Source: Candidatus Fervidifonticultor secundus
GTDB lineage: Bacteria; Sysuimicrobiota; Sysuimicrobiia; Sysuimicrobiales; Humicultoraceae
Assembly: GCA_031459385.1 (NCBI GenBank)
Contig: JAVKIP010000018.1
Span: forward strand, 1 to 45,579
Reading direction: 5' to 3'
Length of the DNA: 45,579 bases
Shown here: positions 12,398 to 26,297 of the stretch, piece after piece
How the letters are laid out: every line of letters begins with the position of its first letter
Position numbering within the stretch: the stretch's first letter is position 1
Notes under the pieces: model-generated
Told to the model about the DNA's origin: nothing
The model's database searches: none
What the model saw: only the letters and a program-made list of their open reading frames with translations
Translations under genes and position numbers: made by a program

Positions 12398-13371
12398 GGC
12401 CGGCCCGCTGGCGATGCGTGCTCGGGGCCGGGCTGGTCCTCCTCGTGGGCCTCGTGCCGGTCGGGCCCGCGCCGGCCGCGGCCGGCACGCGACCCGCAGC
12501 CGGCGCGGCGGCGCCGACGTCGTCCGCCGCCGCGCTGCAGGAAGGCGCGCGCCTGCTCCACGAGGGCCGGCTGCAGGACGCCGAGGCTGCGGTGACGCGC
12601 GCGCTACGCGCGCGTCCGGCGGACCCGCGCGCCTGGCTGTGGCTCGGGGCGATCCGCTATCACCAAGGCGACGTCCAGTGGGCGGCGCAGGCGTTCGACT
12701 ACGTGTCGCGGCGGCAGCCGCACAACGCCCGGGCGCTCCTGTGGCTCGGCCACGCGCTGGTGCGGGCGGGCCGCGCCTCCGAGGCCCAGGAGGCGTTCCG
12801 CCGGGTGCTGCTGCTGCCTGCCGATCCACCGGCGCACGAGTTGGCCCGCCAGGCCCTGCGCGCGATGCGACCGCTGCCGCAGCAGGCAGCGCGGGGGCCC
12901 GAGGCCGCGGCCTGGGTCACCGACGTCACGGCCTACCAGGGGTTCGCGCGGCACTACAATCCCCGGCTGGGCCTCCAGGACGCCCGCCGCATCGGCGAGG
13001 CGCTGCTGGGTTACAGCCGGCTGTTCAACGTCGACCCGCGCCTGGTCGTCGCGCTCGTCGTGGTCGAGTCGGGGTTTCAAGTCCGCGTGCGGTCGCGTGC
13101 CGGGGCCATTGGCCTGGGGCAGCTGATGCCGGAGACCGCGCAGGCGCTCGGCGTCGATCCGGAAGACCCCGTGCAGAACCTCTACGGCACGATCCGGTAC
13201 CTGCGCGGGACCCTCGACCGGTTCGGGTGGGACAACCTGCACCTGGCCCTGGCGGCGTACAACGCGGGCCGTGGTGCCGTCGAGCGCCACCGGGGCATTC
13301 CCCCCTACGACGAGACGCGCTGGTACGTCGTGAACGTCACGACCCTCTACCGCCGGCTGCTGGCCCTGTGA
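12394..13371 (+). CDS. Exported TPR + SLT lytic transglycosylase
   Basis: Signal peptide, about three TPRs (AWLWLG, ALLWLG), SLT motifs [22 protein letters not shown] and ETRWYV. Confidence 0.9.
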
Positions 13372-13439
13372 GGCCGGCACCGGGCGAGGCGACCGCGCGC
13401 CACGAGCTTCACCGGCGTCCTCCGGGAAGGTCTGCGGAG

Positions 13440-13465
13440 GTCTAGGCGAAGCCGCGGCGGGGCAC
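13440..13465 (+). promoter_or_regulatory. Putative SigB/F-type promoter (copy 2) upstream of riboswitch 1
   Basis: GTCT(13440-13443)-N16-GGGCAC(13460-13465). Confidence 0.65.
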
Positions 13466-13517
13466 AGAAGAACTGGTGGACATCGCGTGCCGGCGATGTG
13501 CGGGCCGGTACGTGCAC

Positions 13518-13608
13518 CCTCCGAACGGGCTAACCCATCGCGAGGTGGGGGCGCAAAGCCGACGGGGGCGCGCGGGCTGCCGTGCGGCCGGCCGGGTTGC
13601 CGAAGAGG
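13518..13608 (+). ncRNA. c-di-GMP-I (GEMM-I) riboswitch aptamer 1
   Basis: CGAACGGGCTAA-CCCATC-GCGA-GGTGGG-GGCGCAAAGCC...GCCGGGTTGCCGAA matches the GEMM-I consensus (GNRA-capped P2, GCAAAG junction, 3' GGGYUGCCGA). It lies in a 5' leader. Confidence 0.88.
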
Positions 13609-13616
13609 AGCCAGGT

Positions 13617-13649
13617 GCGGGCCCTTCGGCCGGTGGCCGGAGGGCCCGC
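13617..13649 (+). promoter_or_regulatory. Strong hairpin, likely the expression platform of riboswitch 1
   Basis: 15-bp stem GCGGGCCCTTCGGCC/GGCCGGAGGGCCCGC with one G-U pair and no U-tract. The 5' arm CTTCGGC is complementary to aptamer 3' GCCGAAG (13599-13605). Confidence 0.55.
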
Positions 13650-13724
13650 GCGTTGCGAGCGCAGCGGCGCCACCGGTGCCGCGCGGTCTCCACAGGCGTT
13701 ACGCCCCGGGCAGGAAGGAAGGTC

Positions 13725-14489
13725 GTGAATCGTCGCACCGCCCTGGAGAGCGCGCGCGCCGGCCCGGCCCTCATCGCCGCCGTGCCCGCCGACGCCATCG
13801 ATCTCGATGCCCTCATCGCCCACCTGACCGCTCGCGGGTTCGAAGGCGGCATCTCGATCGCCGATCCGGAGACGGACGCCGTGCTGTGGATCCACGATGG
13901 CGCCCCGCAGGAGGCATGGTTCCTCGAGGCCACGGGGACTGAAGCCGTATTGCCCGCCGCCGCAGGGCGTGATCTGCTGCGGCAGGTAGCAGCGCGCGGC
14001 GGCATGCTCGCGGTGCTGACCGGCGTGCCGGCGATGCCCGCGTGGCCTGCGGGCGAAGGCGAACTGACGCCGGCGGATGCGACGGCGGCGGGCACGGCGC
14101 CAGCGACGCTGCCGCTGGAGCCCGCGGGCGCAGAGCCCACGGCCAGCGCGGGCGAGTTCGTGGCGAGCACGGCAGTGACCATGGAGCCGCCGGCGCACCC
14201 GTGGCCGCAGATCCTGAGCCTGTTTGTCCAGCGTCTCGCGCGGCTGCGGGGCCGCAAGCTCGCCAGCCGGTTTCTCGCGTCGCTCAATCGGGCGCTCGCG
14301 CCGCACGGCGGCCGCGTGGAGGACGGGCAGGTCGTGGCGCCCCCGCTCCCGGAGGCCACGTGGCGCCGGATCGTGGAGACCGCGTGCGCGTCCATCGTGG
14401 CGGTCGTGGGGCGGGGCTTCGTCGACGGCAACATCGCGGCAGCGGAGCAGGAACTGCGCCAGGCGAGCCGCGCAGGGGAGGGCCGGTGA
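13725..14489 (+). CDS. Hypothetical protein with a PATAN/DUF4388-like N-terminal domain
   Basis: AGGAAGG RBS and GTG start. IDLDALIAHLTARGFEGGISI...AVLWIHDG pattern, Ala/Pro linker, helical C-terminus. Confidence 0.6.
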   Translation: MNRRTALESARAGPALIAAVPADAIDLDALIAHLTARGFEGGISIADPETDAVLWIHDGAPQEAWFLEATGTEAVLPAAAGRDLLRQVAARGGMLAVLTGVPAMPAWPAGEGELTPADATAAGTAPATLPLEPAGAEPTASAGEFVASTAVTMEPPAHPWPQILSLFVQRLARLRGRKLASRFLASLNRALAPHGGRVEDGQVVAPPLPEATWRRIVETACASIVAVVGRGFVDGNIAAAEQELRQASRAGEGR

Positions 14490-15298
14490 CCGCCCGCTCG
14501 GGCATCACCCACTACGCCTGGCCCGGGGGGCTGGCGGTGGTGCTGGAGACCCCGACCGCAGGCATCGGTGCGGTCTTCGGGGCGGCGGGCTGGCAGCTGG
14601 CGCCGCACGACGCGGTGACCGCGGGGCTCCCGTCCGGCGCCGCACGCGCGCATCTCCCCCTGCCCGAGGATGTCGTCGCCCAGTGCATGGACCTGGAGTT
14701 CGTGGGCGGCGCGCTGCACACCGACTTCGTGCTGCTCGACCGCCTCCTCCGGCGCCTGCAGGCCGACGGCACTAGCGCCGTGCTCTTCGTGCTCGGGACG
14801 CATCCCGCGGCCTTCGTGGTCAGCGAGGGGACGCTGACGGCCTTTGATCCCACCGCGCCGGAAGCATCGGAGGAGGCTGTGATCACTCGCGCAGCAGGAT
14901 GGATCGTGCAGCTGGCGGGGCGGATGCGCGCGCCGGCCACGCCGCCGGAACCGGCGATGCCGGTCGCCGCGCCCGCGCCGGCGGGGGCGACGGCGGTCGC
15001 CTCGCCCGACGACGAGCGCTTCGGCCGGTTTGCGGCGAGCGCCCGGTTCCTGTGCGCGCCCGGCGCCGATGCCGCGCTCGCGCCGGAACTGCGCGCTGCG
15101 ATTCAGACCGCGACCGGCGTCGACCCCGGGGCGGTGGTGCGCTACCTCGACGGTGGGCACACGCTCGCCGAGGTCGCCGCCGCCAGCGGCCTCCGGGGCC
15201 CGCAGGTCGCGGCTGTGCTCGAGGTGCTCGTGGCGCGCCGGCTCGCGTTCCGGTACGTCAGCCGGTCCCGCCCGCAGACCGGCTCGCGGCTGCGGTAA
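14486..15298 (+). CDS. Hypothetical protein with a PATAN/DUF4388-like domain and a C-terminal winged helix
   Basis: GTGA overlap. LHTDFVLLDRLLRRLQADG...FVVSEG, and C-terminal LDGGHTLAEVAAASGL...VLEVLVARRLA. Confidence 0.6.
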   Translation: MTARSGITHYAWPGGLAVVLETPTAGIGAVFGAAGWQLAPHDAVTAGLPSGAARAHLPLPEDVVAQCMDLEFVGGALHTDFVLLDRLLRRLQADGTSAVLFVLGTHPAAFVVSEGTLTAFDPTAPEASEEAVITRAAGWIVQLAGRMRAPATPPEPAMPVAAPAPAGATAVASPDDERFGRFAASARFLCAPGADAALAPELRAAIQTATGVDPGAVVRYLDGGHTLAEVAAASGLRGPQVAAVLEVLVARRLAFRYVSRSRPQTGSRLR

Positions 15299-15325
15299 CG
15301 GACACGGCGGTGGCCGCGCGCCGAT

Positions 15326-15351
15326 GTCTACCCGAGGGGAGTTCTGGGCAA
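15326..15351 (+). promoter_or_regulatory. Putative SigB/F-type promoter (copy 3) upstream of riboswitch 2 and the sigma gene (autoregulatory)
   Basis: GTCT(15326-15329)-N16-GGGCAA(15346-15351). Confidence 0.65.
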
Positions 15352-15434
15352 AGTTCTTTGCGGAGAGTCTGCACCAATGTTCTGGGCGGTCTGTTCTGGC
15401 GCGCGCTGACCGCCGGCGACAACTGCATACCGCT

Positions 15435-15513
15435 CCCCGAACAGGGCAAACCCATCGCGAGGTGGGGGCGCAAAGCTGCGGGACCTGCGTGGTCGGCCGG
15501 GCTGCCGAAGGGA
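15435..15513 (+). ncRNA. c-di-GMP-I (GEMM-I) riboswitch aptamer 2
   Basis: CGAACAGGGCAAA-CCCATC-GCGA-GGTGGG-GGCGCAAAGCT...GCCGGGCTGCCGAA. ACAGGGCAAACC is the same as in the Vc2 aptamer. Confidence 0.92.
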
Positions 15514-15521
15514 TGCACCGT

Positions 15522-15561
15522 GGATCCTCGTGGGCAGTCCCAGGAGGGTCCGTTGTTTTTT
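15522..15561 (+). terminator. Intrinsic terminator, the expression platform of riboswitch 2
   Basis: GGATCCTC-GTGGG-CAGT-CCCA-G-GAGGGTCC followed by GTTGTTTTTT, between the aptamer and the sigma RBS. Confidence 0.8.
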
Positions 15562-15611
15562 CGGGGACGGGCGCGTCGCATGCGGACGAAAGGTCACGGG
15601 GAGGCCGCACG

Positions 15612-16442
15612 ATGCCTGGGCGCAGTGGAGAGAGTGCCGTACCGGAGGTTGGAGCACACCGCATGGGCCGCGGGGCGGGCGGCGGGGAGGCCCGTGAGGA
15701 CGAGGAAGCGCTCATGCGACAGTACGCGGAGACCCGCGACCCGACAATCCGGGAGCGGGTGGTGGTGGCCTGCACGCCGCTGGTCCGGCGCATCGCCTCG
15801 GAGTTCGTCTTCTCTGGGGTCCCGACCGAAGACCTGGTGCAGGTCGGGTACATCGGGCTCCTGAACGCCATCGCCGCGTTCGACCCCACCCGCGGGGCCA
15901 AGTTCACCACGTACGCCAGCTACCTGGTCCGCGGCGAGATCCGCCACTACCTGCGCGATCAGCGCGACACGATCCGCAAGCCCCGGTGGCTGCAGAAGAT
16001 CAACACGCGCATCGAGGACGCTATCGGGCGGTACATCAGCGAGGAGGGACGGTTTCCCGGCCTCGAGGAGCTAGCGACCGAGCTGAACATCGAGGAGGAA
16101 GGCCTGCTCGAAGTCCTCCGGACGCGGGAAGCCCTGCGGACCATCGCGCTCGAGACCGATGAAGAGGGCAGCGACCTGCGCGTCGACCGGGAGCGCATCC
16201 GCCACCGCTCGCACGTCAGCTTCCAGCTGCCCATCGAGGACCGTGTGCTGCTGCTGGAGGCCATGGAGTCGCTGAACAGTCTGCAGAAAAAGGTGCTCTA
16301 TTACCTGTTCTTCACCGATCTGACCCAGACCGAGGCCGCCAGGCGCATCGGTATCTCGCAAAAGCACGTCTCGCGCGTCCTGGCCTCGGCCCTGGCCAAA
16401 CTGCGAGGCGTGATGGGCGTGGTGTCATCGGAAGTGATCTAG
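15612..16442 (+). CDS. RNA polymerase sigma factor, SigB/SigF/SigG family
   Basis: EDLVQVGYIGLLNAIAAFDPTRG.KFTTYA...GEIRHYLRD...IR.PR, region 4 TQTEAARRIGISQKHVSR, GGGGAGG RBS. Confidence 0.93.
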   Translation: MPGRSGESAVPEVGAHRMGRGAGGGEAREDEEALMRQYAETRDPTIRERVVVACTPLVRRIASEFVFSGVPTEDLVQVGYIGLLNAIAAFDPTRGAKFTTYASYLVRGEIRHYLRDQRDTIRKPRWLQKINTRIEDAIGRYISEEGRFPGLEELATELNIEEEGLLEVLRTREALRTIALETDEEGSDLRVDRERIRHRSHVSFQLPIEDRVLLLEAMESLNSLQKKVLYYLFFTDLTQTEAARRIGISQKHVSRVLASALAKLRGVMGVVSSEVI

Positions 16443-16512
16443 CGCAGGCGCTGGGCCGACTTGCCCCGGAACGACGCACTCGTCGCCGGAGGTTCTCGAA
16501 GGAGGGTAGATC

Positions 16513-16869
16513 ATGTCGCAGCTCAAGGATGTGCTGGCGGATCTGGCCAAGGTGGACGGTGTCCTGGCGGCACTGGTCGTCAGCCGTGACGGGTTCGTCG
16601 TGGAGGGCGTGACCAGTGAGGAGGCCGTGGACCTCGAGGCCGTGGGCGCCATCGTGGCCAGCAACATCGCCGCCGCCGACTCCATGGGCCGGGAGATGGT
16701 CCGCGGCACCATCCGCAACCTGCTGTTGGAGTTCGACGAGGGCCCCGTCGCCATCGGCCCGGCCGGTCCCGATGCGATGCTGGTGGTCGTGGGGAACAAA
16801 CAGGCGAACCTGGGACGCATCCGCCTCGAGATGCGGCGCAACAGTCAGCTGGCGGCCGCGCTGGTATAG
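16513..16869 (+). CDS. Roadblock/LC7 (MglB-like) protein
   Basis: LKDVLADLAKVDGVLAALVVSRDGFVVE...LEFDEG...ANLGRIRLEM, GGAGG RBS. Confidence 0.9.
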   Translation: MSQLKDVLADLAKVDGVLAALVVSRDGFVVEGVTSEEAVDLEAVGAIVASNIAAADSMGREMVRGTIRNLLLEFDEGPVAIGPAGPDAMLVVVGNKQANLGRIRLEMRRNSQLAAALV

Positions 16870-16887
16870 CGCCGGCCGCGTTTGCGG

Positions 16888-19104
<2,217 letters not shown>

Positions 19105-19115
19105 CGCCCTAGAGT

Positions 19116-19142
19116 ATGCCCAAGTCCAGCGGGCGCGAAGAC
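19116..19142 (-). promoter_or_regulatory. Putative SigB/F-type promoter (copy 4) for the TPR-PilB gene
   Basis: Minus strand GTCT(19142-19139)-N17-GGGCAT(19121-19116), ending only 11 nt before the ATG. Confidence 0.55.
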
Positions 19143-19157
19143 GCCTCTGCCACGCGA

Positions 19158-19183
19158 GACTAGCGCTGTGGTTTTGTGGGCAT
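19158..19183 (+). promoter_or_regulatory. Putative SigB/F-type promoter (copy 5) for the dnaB-like-merR-pilB-pilT-pilC operon
   Basis: GACT(19158-19161)-N16-GGGCAT(19178-19183), back-to-back with copy 4. Confidence 0.65.
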
Positions 19184-19366
19184 ATCCAGGGGTGGCCGAC
19201 CCGAAGTTTGCAGCCGCAATCAGGCGCAGAAGTTCCCGCGGTGGCAGAAGGTTCATGCAGTATTGGGGGAAGTTCTGCGCAGGATGACGAACCAGTCCCG
19301 GGGCTGCTGGAGCGGCTCCCGGCCCGGGCACGGGGCTCGGCCGGGCACACGAAGGGAGAGGCACGC

Positions 19367-25749: not shown

Positions 25750-25775
25750 GTCTACGTTGTCCGGCAGTTGGGTAG
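25750..25775 (+). promoter_or_regulatory. Putative SigB/F-type promoter (copy 6) upstream of the pilin gene
   Basis: GTCT(25750-25753)-N16-GGGTAG(25770-25775). Confidence 0.62.
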
Positions 25776-25886
25776 TGAACAGGATGGTGCGACTTGCGGG
25801 CGCGGGGGAGGTGGTGAGGGCCGGGACCGGTGAGCGTACTGCGAACTGCTGGGCTGGTCACTTTCGAACGAAGGAGGTCGGGTATC

Positions 25887-26297
25887 TTGCTTAACTTCTT
25901 CCTCACGCACAAGCGGCGCGCCGGCCAGGGAGGGTTCACCCTCATCGAGCTGGTCGTCGTGCTGGCCATCCTGGGCATCCTGCTGGCGCTGGCGGTGCCC
26001 CGGTACCTGGGCGCCCGGAAGCGGGCGTACAAGGCCGAGGCGCAGAACCTGCTGCAGGAATTGAAGACGCTGTCATGGGCGTACTACCAGGAGTTCAATG
26101 TGTTTAGGACGGATCTGTCGGCGCTCGGGTTCGTGATGCCCAATGGGGCGAGCTGGGATCCTCCGACCGGCGCGGGCGATAATACACAGACCGTGACGTG
26201 GACCCTCACGGGTTCCTCAGGCACCCCTGTTGCGGGGAACACGTGCTCCCTGATCCTGGCGGGCACCGGGAGCTCCTCGCAGGGCTGCAACTTCTAG
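25887..26297 (+). CDS. Type IV pilin (probable major pilin)
   Basis: AAGGAGGT RBS and TTG start, class III signal peptide G|FTLIELVVVLAILGILLALAVP, C-terminal Cys pair. Confidence 0.92.
   Translation: MLNFFLTHKRRAGQGGFTLIELVVVLAILGILLALAVPRYLGARKRAYKAEAQNLLQELKTLSWAYYQEFNVFRTDLSALGFVMPNGASWDPPTGAGDNTQTVTWTLTGSSGTPVAGNTCSLILAGTGSSSQGCNF

Follow-up and report, generated by a model that had tools for sequence, protein, structure and literature searches.

A c-di-GMP-I riboswitch and terminator probably gate a SigB/F/G-like sigma factor gene in Candidatus Fervidifonticultor secundus

How is a sigma factor gene controlled when the RNA ahead of it carries a sensor for a second messenger? The question is raised by a gene for a SigB/F/G-like sigma factor in Candidatus Fervidifonticultor secundus, on contig JAVKIP010000018.1 (assembly GCA_031459385.1), whose 45,579 nucleotides (nt) are called the window here. 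A preliminary description of this DNA had claimed that the gene is gated directly by a riboswitch for cyclic di-GMP (c-di-GMP) and a terminator, and had suggested that such RNA sensing may replace, or add to, control by an anti-sigma factor. We consider it likely, from comparison of the leader with those of related genomes, that a canonical c-di-GMP-I (GEMM-I) riboswitch, working as an OFF switch at the level of transcription, controls a bicistronic operon of the sigma gene and a Roadblock/LC7 gene. The RNA class and the mechanism are known; what is new is the sigma target and its conservation in this lineage.

The GEMM-I aptamer of the G20 type that had been described ahead of the sigma gene was borne out on both counts. 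Positions 15436–15510 of the forward strand match the Rfam model RF03167 at 65.1 bits (cut-off 59, E 3e-13) and RF01051 at 58.9 bits, above its gathering score of 35, and the segment folds into two hairpins with a GNRA loop, GCGA, at 15457–15460 and an AAA linker at 15472–15474, the features that characterize GEMM-I. G15445 lies directly 5' of the first GC pair and, like A15472 and C15505, stands at a ligand-contact position; we take the three to be G20, A47 and C92 of Vc2. In an alignment of 29 leaders, made up of the window copy and 28 orthologs, these letters are G in 27, A in 29 and C in 29 sequences (L022 and L044 come from genomes flagged unpublished, and no claim depends solely on either). 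Across the 29 sequences, 95.5% of the aptamer pair cells hold standard pairs, a share that drops to 48% or less once the partner columns are shifted, and the orthologous aptamers score 59.6–72.7 bits on RF03167. The Rfam E-values and the recurrence of the aptamer in 28 of 29 related loci exclude a chance match.

We read the aptamer as canonical c-di-GMP-I, rather than as the GGC variant that RF03167 describes, because its first linker base, A15472, is the canonical A and not the G of the GGC consensus. The Rfam consensus lines for this linker are GACGCAAAgC for RF01051 and GACGCGAAgC for the GGC model; the window has GCGCAAAGC. RF03167 is the better-scoring model in the window and in all 28 orthologs, but its consensus linker G (GCGAA) is A in every one of them, and the RF03167 label probably reflects a lineage-specific likeness. 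Compared with Vc2 of Vibrio cholerae and RF01051, the two hairpins, the GNRA loop, the AAA linker and the core word ACAGGGCAAACC are kept, whereas the loop here is of the GYRA type without a tetraloop receptor, the G+C content is high, and the expression platform would be a terminator-based OFF switch. PMC1950547 describes GYRA-loop GEMM forms that have no tetraloop receptor, consistent with the GCGA loop, and counts the AAA linker in all but 2 of 322 GEMM examples.

Downstream of the aptamer, the hairpin 15522–15551 appears in both the minimum free energy (MFE) and the centroid fold of the leader and is followed by GUUGUUUUUU at 15552–15561, in agreement with the terminator and U tract first proposed for 15522–15561. 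Its stem has 8 and 4 pairs flanking one G.G mismatch, with −21.4 kcal/mol when folded alone; the tail holds 8 U in 10, and the ribosome-binding site (RBS), whose presence before the sigma gene (ATG at 15612) had also been described correctly, lies 37 nt beyond and is unpaired with the hairpin. A hairpin occupies this place in all 29 leaders. Its sequence takes 28 distinct forms, most stem positions show several pair types, energies range from −12 to −33.6 kcal/mol (median −23), and at least 4 U fall within the 10 nt after it in 23 of the 29. Terminator pairs were counted per sequence because the MAFFT alignment is structurally inconsistent over the terminator, and the hairpins of L023 and L033, mis-picked in this survey, were corrected by hand for the antiterminator test only. 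Aptamer and hairpin share no bases, the gap between them being 7–20 nt in all 29 leaders, and a ligand-bound aptamer would therefore leave the terminator free to form. As a separate observation, leaders L036–L044 (genera g3, g9 and g12) carry some 200 nt of additional spacer ahead of the sigma start, 60–260 nt past the terminator; a conserved stretch in this spacer (..GAGCCUGCUGCCCCGACAGGCUCAACCUGC..) is possibly a second structured element.

The leader also holds a strand that could keep the terminator from forming. According to the preliminary description, a short pairing of GGGAU (15510–15514) with AUCCU (15524–15528) could disrupt the terminator without ligand. This pairing exists and is the middle of a longer duplex of 15502–15514 with 15523–15537; the proposed disruption is thus plausible as part of a longer antiterminator, and it implies an OFF switch, a direction that had been left unstated. 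In the window the duplex has −14.7 kcal/mol, a value equalled by 1% of 200 shuffles. Over the 29 leaders the median is −15.6 kcal/mol against −8.7 for shuffled arms; at most 5% of the 200 shuffles are as good in 24 of them, and the reversed arm is beaten in all 29. Two clades pair the invariant aptamer end differently, as ..CCUCUUGGGGCAG or as ..CCCCCUCGGUGGC, and the antiterminator pairing accounts for the conserved GCAG of the terminator loop, which is otherwise unexplained. When the transcript is cut before the 3' arm of the hairpin, the antiterminator fold is the MFE structure, at −45.8 kcal/mol compared with −45.1 for the P1-type fold, and a difference this small, within about 1 kcal/mol, is what a switch needs. 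A G+C-rich hairpin with a U tract would then be mutually exclusive with a pairing that uses the 3' strand of P1, as expected of an OFF platform.

We propose that transcription begins upstream, at a sigmaA-like promoter and probably also at a promoter of the form GTCTA-N15-GGGCA. Without ligand, the aptamer 3' end CUGCCGAAGGGAU would pair with the terminator's 5' arm and loop; this duplex would block the terminator, and RNA polymerase would read into the sigma gene. With c-di-GMP bound, P1 (15434–15439 with 15506–15513) and the binding pocket would retain the competing strand, so that the hairpin and U tract could form and transcription would end before the sigma gene. High c-di-GMP would in this way lead to less sigma factor and to lower expression of the genes that this sigma transcribes.

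The arrangement is widely kept. A protein search covered 60 relatives, those with names being hot-spring and soil metagenome-assembled genomes (MAGs) labelled Armatimonadota, 'Bacillati bacterium ANGP1' or Candidatus Fervidifonticultor (the last placed by NCBI in Candidatus Sysuimicrobiota, formerly CSP1-3), and found sigma orthologs of 64–86% identity in family f1. The survey of orthologous sigma leaders that the preliminary description had called for places the aptamer upstream of sigma, on the same strand, in 28 of 29 family-f1 loci, from 28 genomes and 10 genera; the exception, L046, is a paralog at 57% identity whose contig reaches no more than 558 nt upstream. Three other families of the order are represented by five genomes, and in four of these (G058, G040, G041 and G039, but not G037) the best sigma homolog, at 46–49% identity, has a GEMM-I aptamer directly upstream. 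The aptamer is also found upstream of sigma in four ANGP1 MAG loci at 47% identity. Sigma paralogs within the family (53–63% identity) have no aptamer upstream, a tRNA being there instead, and no aptamer adjoins the sigma gene in the loci from Atribacterota, Dictyoglomota, Vulcanimicrobiota and Fimbriimonas (36–45% identity). In two further MAG loci, L092 and L097, the aptamer is some 1.5 kb upstream. Conservation across the family and beyond supports the claim that a c-di-GMP-type riboswitch and terminator would gate this sigma gene.

Would such a gate replace anti-sigma control, as had been suggested? The sigma protein has Pfam matches to r2 at 63.1 bits and r4 at 44.5 bits, with r3 at 24.1 bits falling just below its cut-off of 25.3. 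Its earlier assignment to the SigB/F/G family held in part: TIGR02980 is its best NCBIfam model, but the 176.9 bits obtained stay below the family cut-off of 234.35, as do the scores of all three sigma paralogs in the same genome. The nearest solved chains are 8x6g_H (a 256-aa sigma factor) and 1l0o_C (a sigma factor chain). These models and solved relatives are of SigB/F/G type and so recall the partner switching of SigB and SigF (RsbW/RsbV, SpoIIAB/SpoIIAA), from which the present case differs in the score below the family cut-off and in the genes found in its genome. This genome (3.30 Mb in 59 contigs, 97.6% complete, about 70% G+C, the window being contig C10) has 0 matches each to STAS, STAS_2 and SpoIIE. 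The proposed search for RsbW/SpoIIAB partners found none among the PF13581 matches examined: nine of the 11 lie in frames of 186–983 aa, with no small RsbW-type gene among them and the 186-aa frame being a histidine-kinase C-terminus; a tenth, C5:78743, is also histidine-kinase sequence. A partner-switching module, with an anti-sigma kinase, a STAS antagonist and often a PP2C phosphatase, was thus not detected in this genome, which is not proof of absence. STAS genes are present in 7 of 33 other family-f1 genomes, and in 6 of these 7 the STAS gene is less than 5 kb from a separate sigma paralog of 32–36% identity. The riboswitch-gated sigma is thus a subfamily that lacks a detectable partner-switching module, and the suggestion that RNA sensing replaces anti-sigma control agrees with the genome.

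Several points weigh against a c-di-GMP-dependent OFF switch. Besides the preference of the aptamer for the GGC model, the close kinship of the sequences keeps covariation in the aptamer no higher than in shuffles (3 pairs with two-sided change; the shuffles average 1.6, and 46 of 500 do as well), and the leaders behind the antiterminator statistics are likewise kin, not independent. The antiterminator test is not significant in five of the 29 leaders (L026, L031, L032, L034 and L044). For truncated transcripts of many leaders both states are nearly isoenergetic at 37 °C, the temperature of the computed folds, and the hosts live at hot-spring temperatures, where energies differ. A consensus terminator scan over 13000–17200 returned 0 terminators and left the hairpin 15522–15551 uncalled because its rule demands five unbroken loop-adjacent pairs and the mismatch leaves four. 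Some orthologs have a weak U tract, such as L030, L040, L041 and L043 (3 U in 10). Finally, a run search listed no RNA sequencing runs as containing the sigma locus; four DNA runs from a single hot-spring study may be the source.

The same parts could also be read as an ON switch, with bound c-di-GMP blocking termination and increasing the expression of sigma. Many GEMM-I RNAs have been proposed to be ON switches since their terminator overlaps the second hairpin (PMC1950547). Whenever the whole leader is folded thermodynamically, the terminator is present, and some factor must therefore prevent it. There is no such overlap here, however, as the hairpin starts past the aptamer in all 29 leaders, and the strand that competes with the terminator is the one that a ligand-bound P1 would hold. 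An ON switch appears unlikely to us.

We judge it still less probable that the hairpin acts on translation or RNA stability instead of termination, or that the riboswitch adds only a minor layer to control exerted mainly by some unknown protein partner of the sigma factor. Poor U tracts in about 6 of 29 orthologs would suit such readings, as would the sister-family leader L176, in which the RBS lies inside the 3' arm of the hairpin and the AUG follows about 8 nt later, and the strongly conserved Roadblock gene, always 3' of sigma. In the window, however, the tail is rich in U and the RBS is distant and unpaired, and no known anti-sigma module was found in the genome. Least probable of all is a different ligand, be it that of the c-di-GMP-I-GGC variant class or, as for GEMM-Ib, 3',3'-cyclic GMP-AMP (3',3'-cGAMP), for although RF03167 scores best and two orthologs have A at the G20 equivalent, the base that distinguishes the GGC consensus (GACGCGAA against GACGCAAA in the two Rfam consensus lines) is A throughout, the G20 equivalent is G in the window and 26 orthologs, the C92 equivalent is invariant, and the locus is rich in c-di-GMP genes (GGDEF, HD-GYP and MshEN).

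The two orthologs with A at the G20-equivalent base are L031 and L034, sigma leaders of genus g4 (AAAGAGCAAACC). In Geobacter GEMM-Ib, an A at this position is said to go with 3',3'-cGAMP selectivity, and these two leaders may sense a different dinucleotide.

The canonical c-di-GMP-I OFF switch remains our preferred reading of the window copy, and the coordinates of its parts are collected in Table 1 together with the flanking features.

Table 1. Positions in the window of the features of the sigma leader and operon.
Feature	Position	Strand	Basis or detail
Promoter-like GTCTA-N15-GGGCA	15326..15350	+	Read from sequence
Degenerate sigmaA-like promoter, CTGCAC-N17-TGTTCT	15369..15397	+	Located by aligning the orthologous leaders
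Conserved leader motif ACAACTGCATA, just 5' of P1	15419..15429	+	Alignment
c-di-GMP-I (GEMM-I) aptamer, including extended P1	15434..15513	+	Rfam match 15436-15510
Candidate antiterminator	15502..15537	+	15502-15514 (3' end of aptamer/P1) pairs with 15523-15537 (terminator 5' arm and loop)
Predicted intrinsic terminator	15522..15561	+	Hairpin 15522-15551 plus GUUGUUUUUU at 15552-15561
RBS GGGGAGG, 7 nt before ATG	15598..15604	+	Read from sequence
Group-3 sigma-70 family gene, 276 aa, SigB/F/G-like	15612..16442	+	Pfam r2, r3, r4
Roadblock/LC7 (MglB-like) gene	16513..16869	+	Pfam Robl_LC7, 61.2 bits; 70 nt past sigma stop codon

A promoter motif ahead of the aptamer had been described without coordinates. 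Two promoter-like elements do lie upstream, but nothing promoter-like was seen within 15435–16442, and a strict consensus promoter scan over 13000–17200 found none. The sigmaA-like element corresponds to a promoter of the form TTGCGC-N17-TATGAT about 33–60 nt before the aptamer in orthologs; a loose pattern, TTGC..N16-18..TAnnnT, occurs in 16 of the 29 leaders, the window copy being without a match. Transcription of sigma from a promoter downstream of the terminator had been raised as a concern. No promoter-like element fits between terminator and sigma gene in the window, and in many orthologs the RBS follows the terminator tail by about 5–25 nt, so close that there is no room for a promoter.

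Just 5' of P1, the leader motif of Table 1 has invariant AA....ATA positions in the 29-sequence alignment, and its pattern is matched in 21 of 29 leaders. A pairing of this motif, ACAAnnnnATA, with downstream sequence was considered and dropped, as the candidate partners are not conserved. Many GEMM-I aptamers of the order are preceded, at a distance of a few bases, by a similar word, A(A/C)AAnnG(A/C)ATA(G/C), which lies past sigmaA-like -10 boxes (L175, L177, L187, L188, L191 and L193 are examples).

The sigma and Roadblock genes probably form one operon. The Roadblock gene is 3' of sigma in all 43 related loci, at 76–98% identity, which is above that of sigma itself. A structure prediction for a complex of the two proteins scored 0.00, which counts neither way.

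The second upstream element, GTCTA-N15-GGGCA, resembles the -35/-10 consensus of sigmaB/F-type promoters, and at 15326–15350 it may be autoregulatory or read by a paralog. The GTCTA motif lies 80–107 nt upstream of the aptamer in 14 of the 29 sigma leaders, upstream of four of the eight GEMM-I aptamers in the genome itself (with a one-mismatch copy at a fifth) and upstream of 18 of 30 such aptamers in five related genomes. In those five genomes, 18 of 19 matches to the motif fall in the windows upstream of aptamers, with one other in 181 kb of locus sequence on both strands. GTCTA-N15-GGGYA thus precedes not only the sigma leader but also the majority of the family's other GEMM-I leaders, a hint that they may share a regulon. 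A regulon defined by the GTCTA pattern alone was rejected, there being no genome-wide enrichment. A further copy, GTCTACGTTGTCCGGCAGTTGGGTA at 25750–25774, is about 55 nt upstream of a prepilin-type (N_methyl) gene at 25830–26297, just past pilB-pilT-pilC and without a riboswitch.

These matches allow a wider reading, tentative and in our view doubtful, in which a regulon of c-di-GMP and type IV pilus functions has this sigma factor as its master regulator and RNA sensing replaces partner switching. Members of the regulon would carry GTCTA-N15-GGGYA and mostly a GEMM-I riboswitch of their own, so that c-di-GMP would reach each target at two points, the sigma supply and the target's leader, as a feed-forward gate. 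If this is true, sigma would be autoregulated from the motif at 15326–15350, and its invariable partner in transcription, the Roadblock/LC7 protein, would bind or serve sigma as a partner of a new kind. The reading is based on the motif counts at aptamers and sigma leaders given above, on the copy before the pilin gene, and on genome G005 (97% complete), which has no other SigB/F/G-like sigma at E <= 1e-20. Other results speak against such a gate. The sigma paralog on C8 has a GTCTA-N15-GGGAA variant upstream; the sister families keep the pair of riboswitch and sigma gene but have the GTCTA motif in 1 of 22 leaders; and GTCTA-N14-16-GGGYA is not enriched genome-wide, with 20 matches in the genome and 36 in its reversed-sequence control. 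For the same pattern in three relatives, the counts are 13 against 16, 10 against 20 and 16 against 31 in the reversed controls.

The known routes from c-di-GMP to sigma factors run via proteins, or indirectly via long operons. In the Cd1 riboswitch of Clostridioides difficile, in the flgB operon leader, c-di-GMP reportedly causes premature termination and SigD falls. Cd1 resembles the present leader in having a GEMM-I aptamer followed by a terminator, that is, the layout of an OFF switch. Its sigma factor is of the FliA type and is encoded deep within a long flagellar operon, whereas here the riboswitch lies directly before a likely two-gene operon of sigma and Roadblock, in a pilus and c-di-GMP neighbourhood and in a different phylum. 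In Streptomyces, the anti-sigma factor RsiG is said to bind c-di-GMP and to control the alternative sigma factor WhiG at the protein level. Both systems would link c-di-GMP to an alternative sigma factor, but here the link would be made at the RNA, in the sigma gene's own leader.

Were a sigma gene controlled directly by a riboswitch, a single small molecule would be able to reprogram an entire regulon through RNA, with no protein receptor; the wiring is kept across a candidate phylum-level lineage with no cultured members. With an RNA of about 130 nt and one sigma factor, the system is compact and testable and could reveal how c-di-GMP is coupled to pili and surface behaviour in hot-spring bacteria; the promoter motif shared by most of the riboswitches offers a way to define the regulon. 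In the literature on c-di-GMP riboswitches and sigma factors, Armatimonadota and Sysuimicrobiota (supplements excluded), we found no paper that describes this direct wiring of a c-di-GMP riboswitch to a sigma gene. The word 'sigma' is absent from the main text of PMC1950547, as are the words c-di-GMP, riboswitch and sigma from that of PMC11604079.

The neighbourhood of the sigma gene consists of c-di-GMP and type IV pilus genes, with GGDEF, HD-GYP and MshEN domains identified by Pfam. The order starts with HD-GYP, GGDEF, a second Roadblock gene, TPR-SLT, riboswitch 2 and two conserved genes without a Pfam match; it continues with riboswitch 1, sigma, Roadblock, a convergent gene for a TPR-MshEN-ATPase, PilB, PilT, PilC, a pilin and a glycosylation cluster. 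The convergent gene, 16888–19350 on the reverse strand, encodes an 820-aa ATPase of TPR repeats, an MshEN domain and T2SSE, and adjoins the Roadblock gene in many related loci. In MshE, the MshEN domain binds c-di-GMP.

By Rfam, the window holds two class-I c-di-GMP aptamers, riboswitch 1 at 15436–15510(+) and riboswitch 2 at 13518–13604(+), and the whole genome eight. Riboswitch 2 matches RF01051 at 41.2 bits and has GTCTA-N15-GGGCA 53 nt upstream, at 13440–13464. It leads two overlapping genes, 13725–14489 and 14486–15298, which match neither Pfam nor NCBIfam and are conserved upstream of the sigma leader in related loci. Elsewhere in the genome, the GEMM-I aptamer at C5:77660–77736 has a GTCTA..GGGCA motif 17 nt before it and a terminator-like hairpin. 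It heads an operon in the stretch down to about 81615, whose products, judged from their translations, are a histidine kinase, a receiver-GGDEF protein and another GGDEF-type protein; here c-di-GMP would gate genes for its own synthesis. Three GEMM-I aptamers lie within less than 9 kb at C23:137096–145700, before genes with prepilin-like N-termini (..FTLLETLIVVAVLG..), and the start codons are close behind the aptamers, a placement that suggests control of translation. L081:5687–5771 matches a group II intron domain (RF02005, 60.3 bits), the match being truncated where this Atribacterota-related locus ends.

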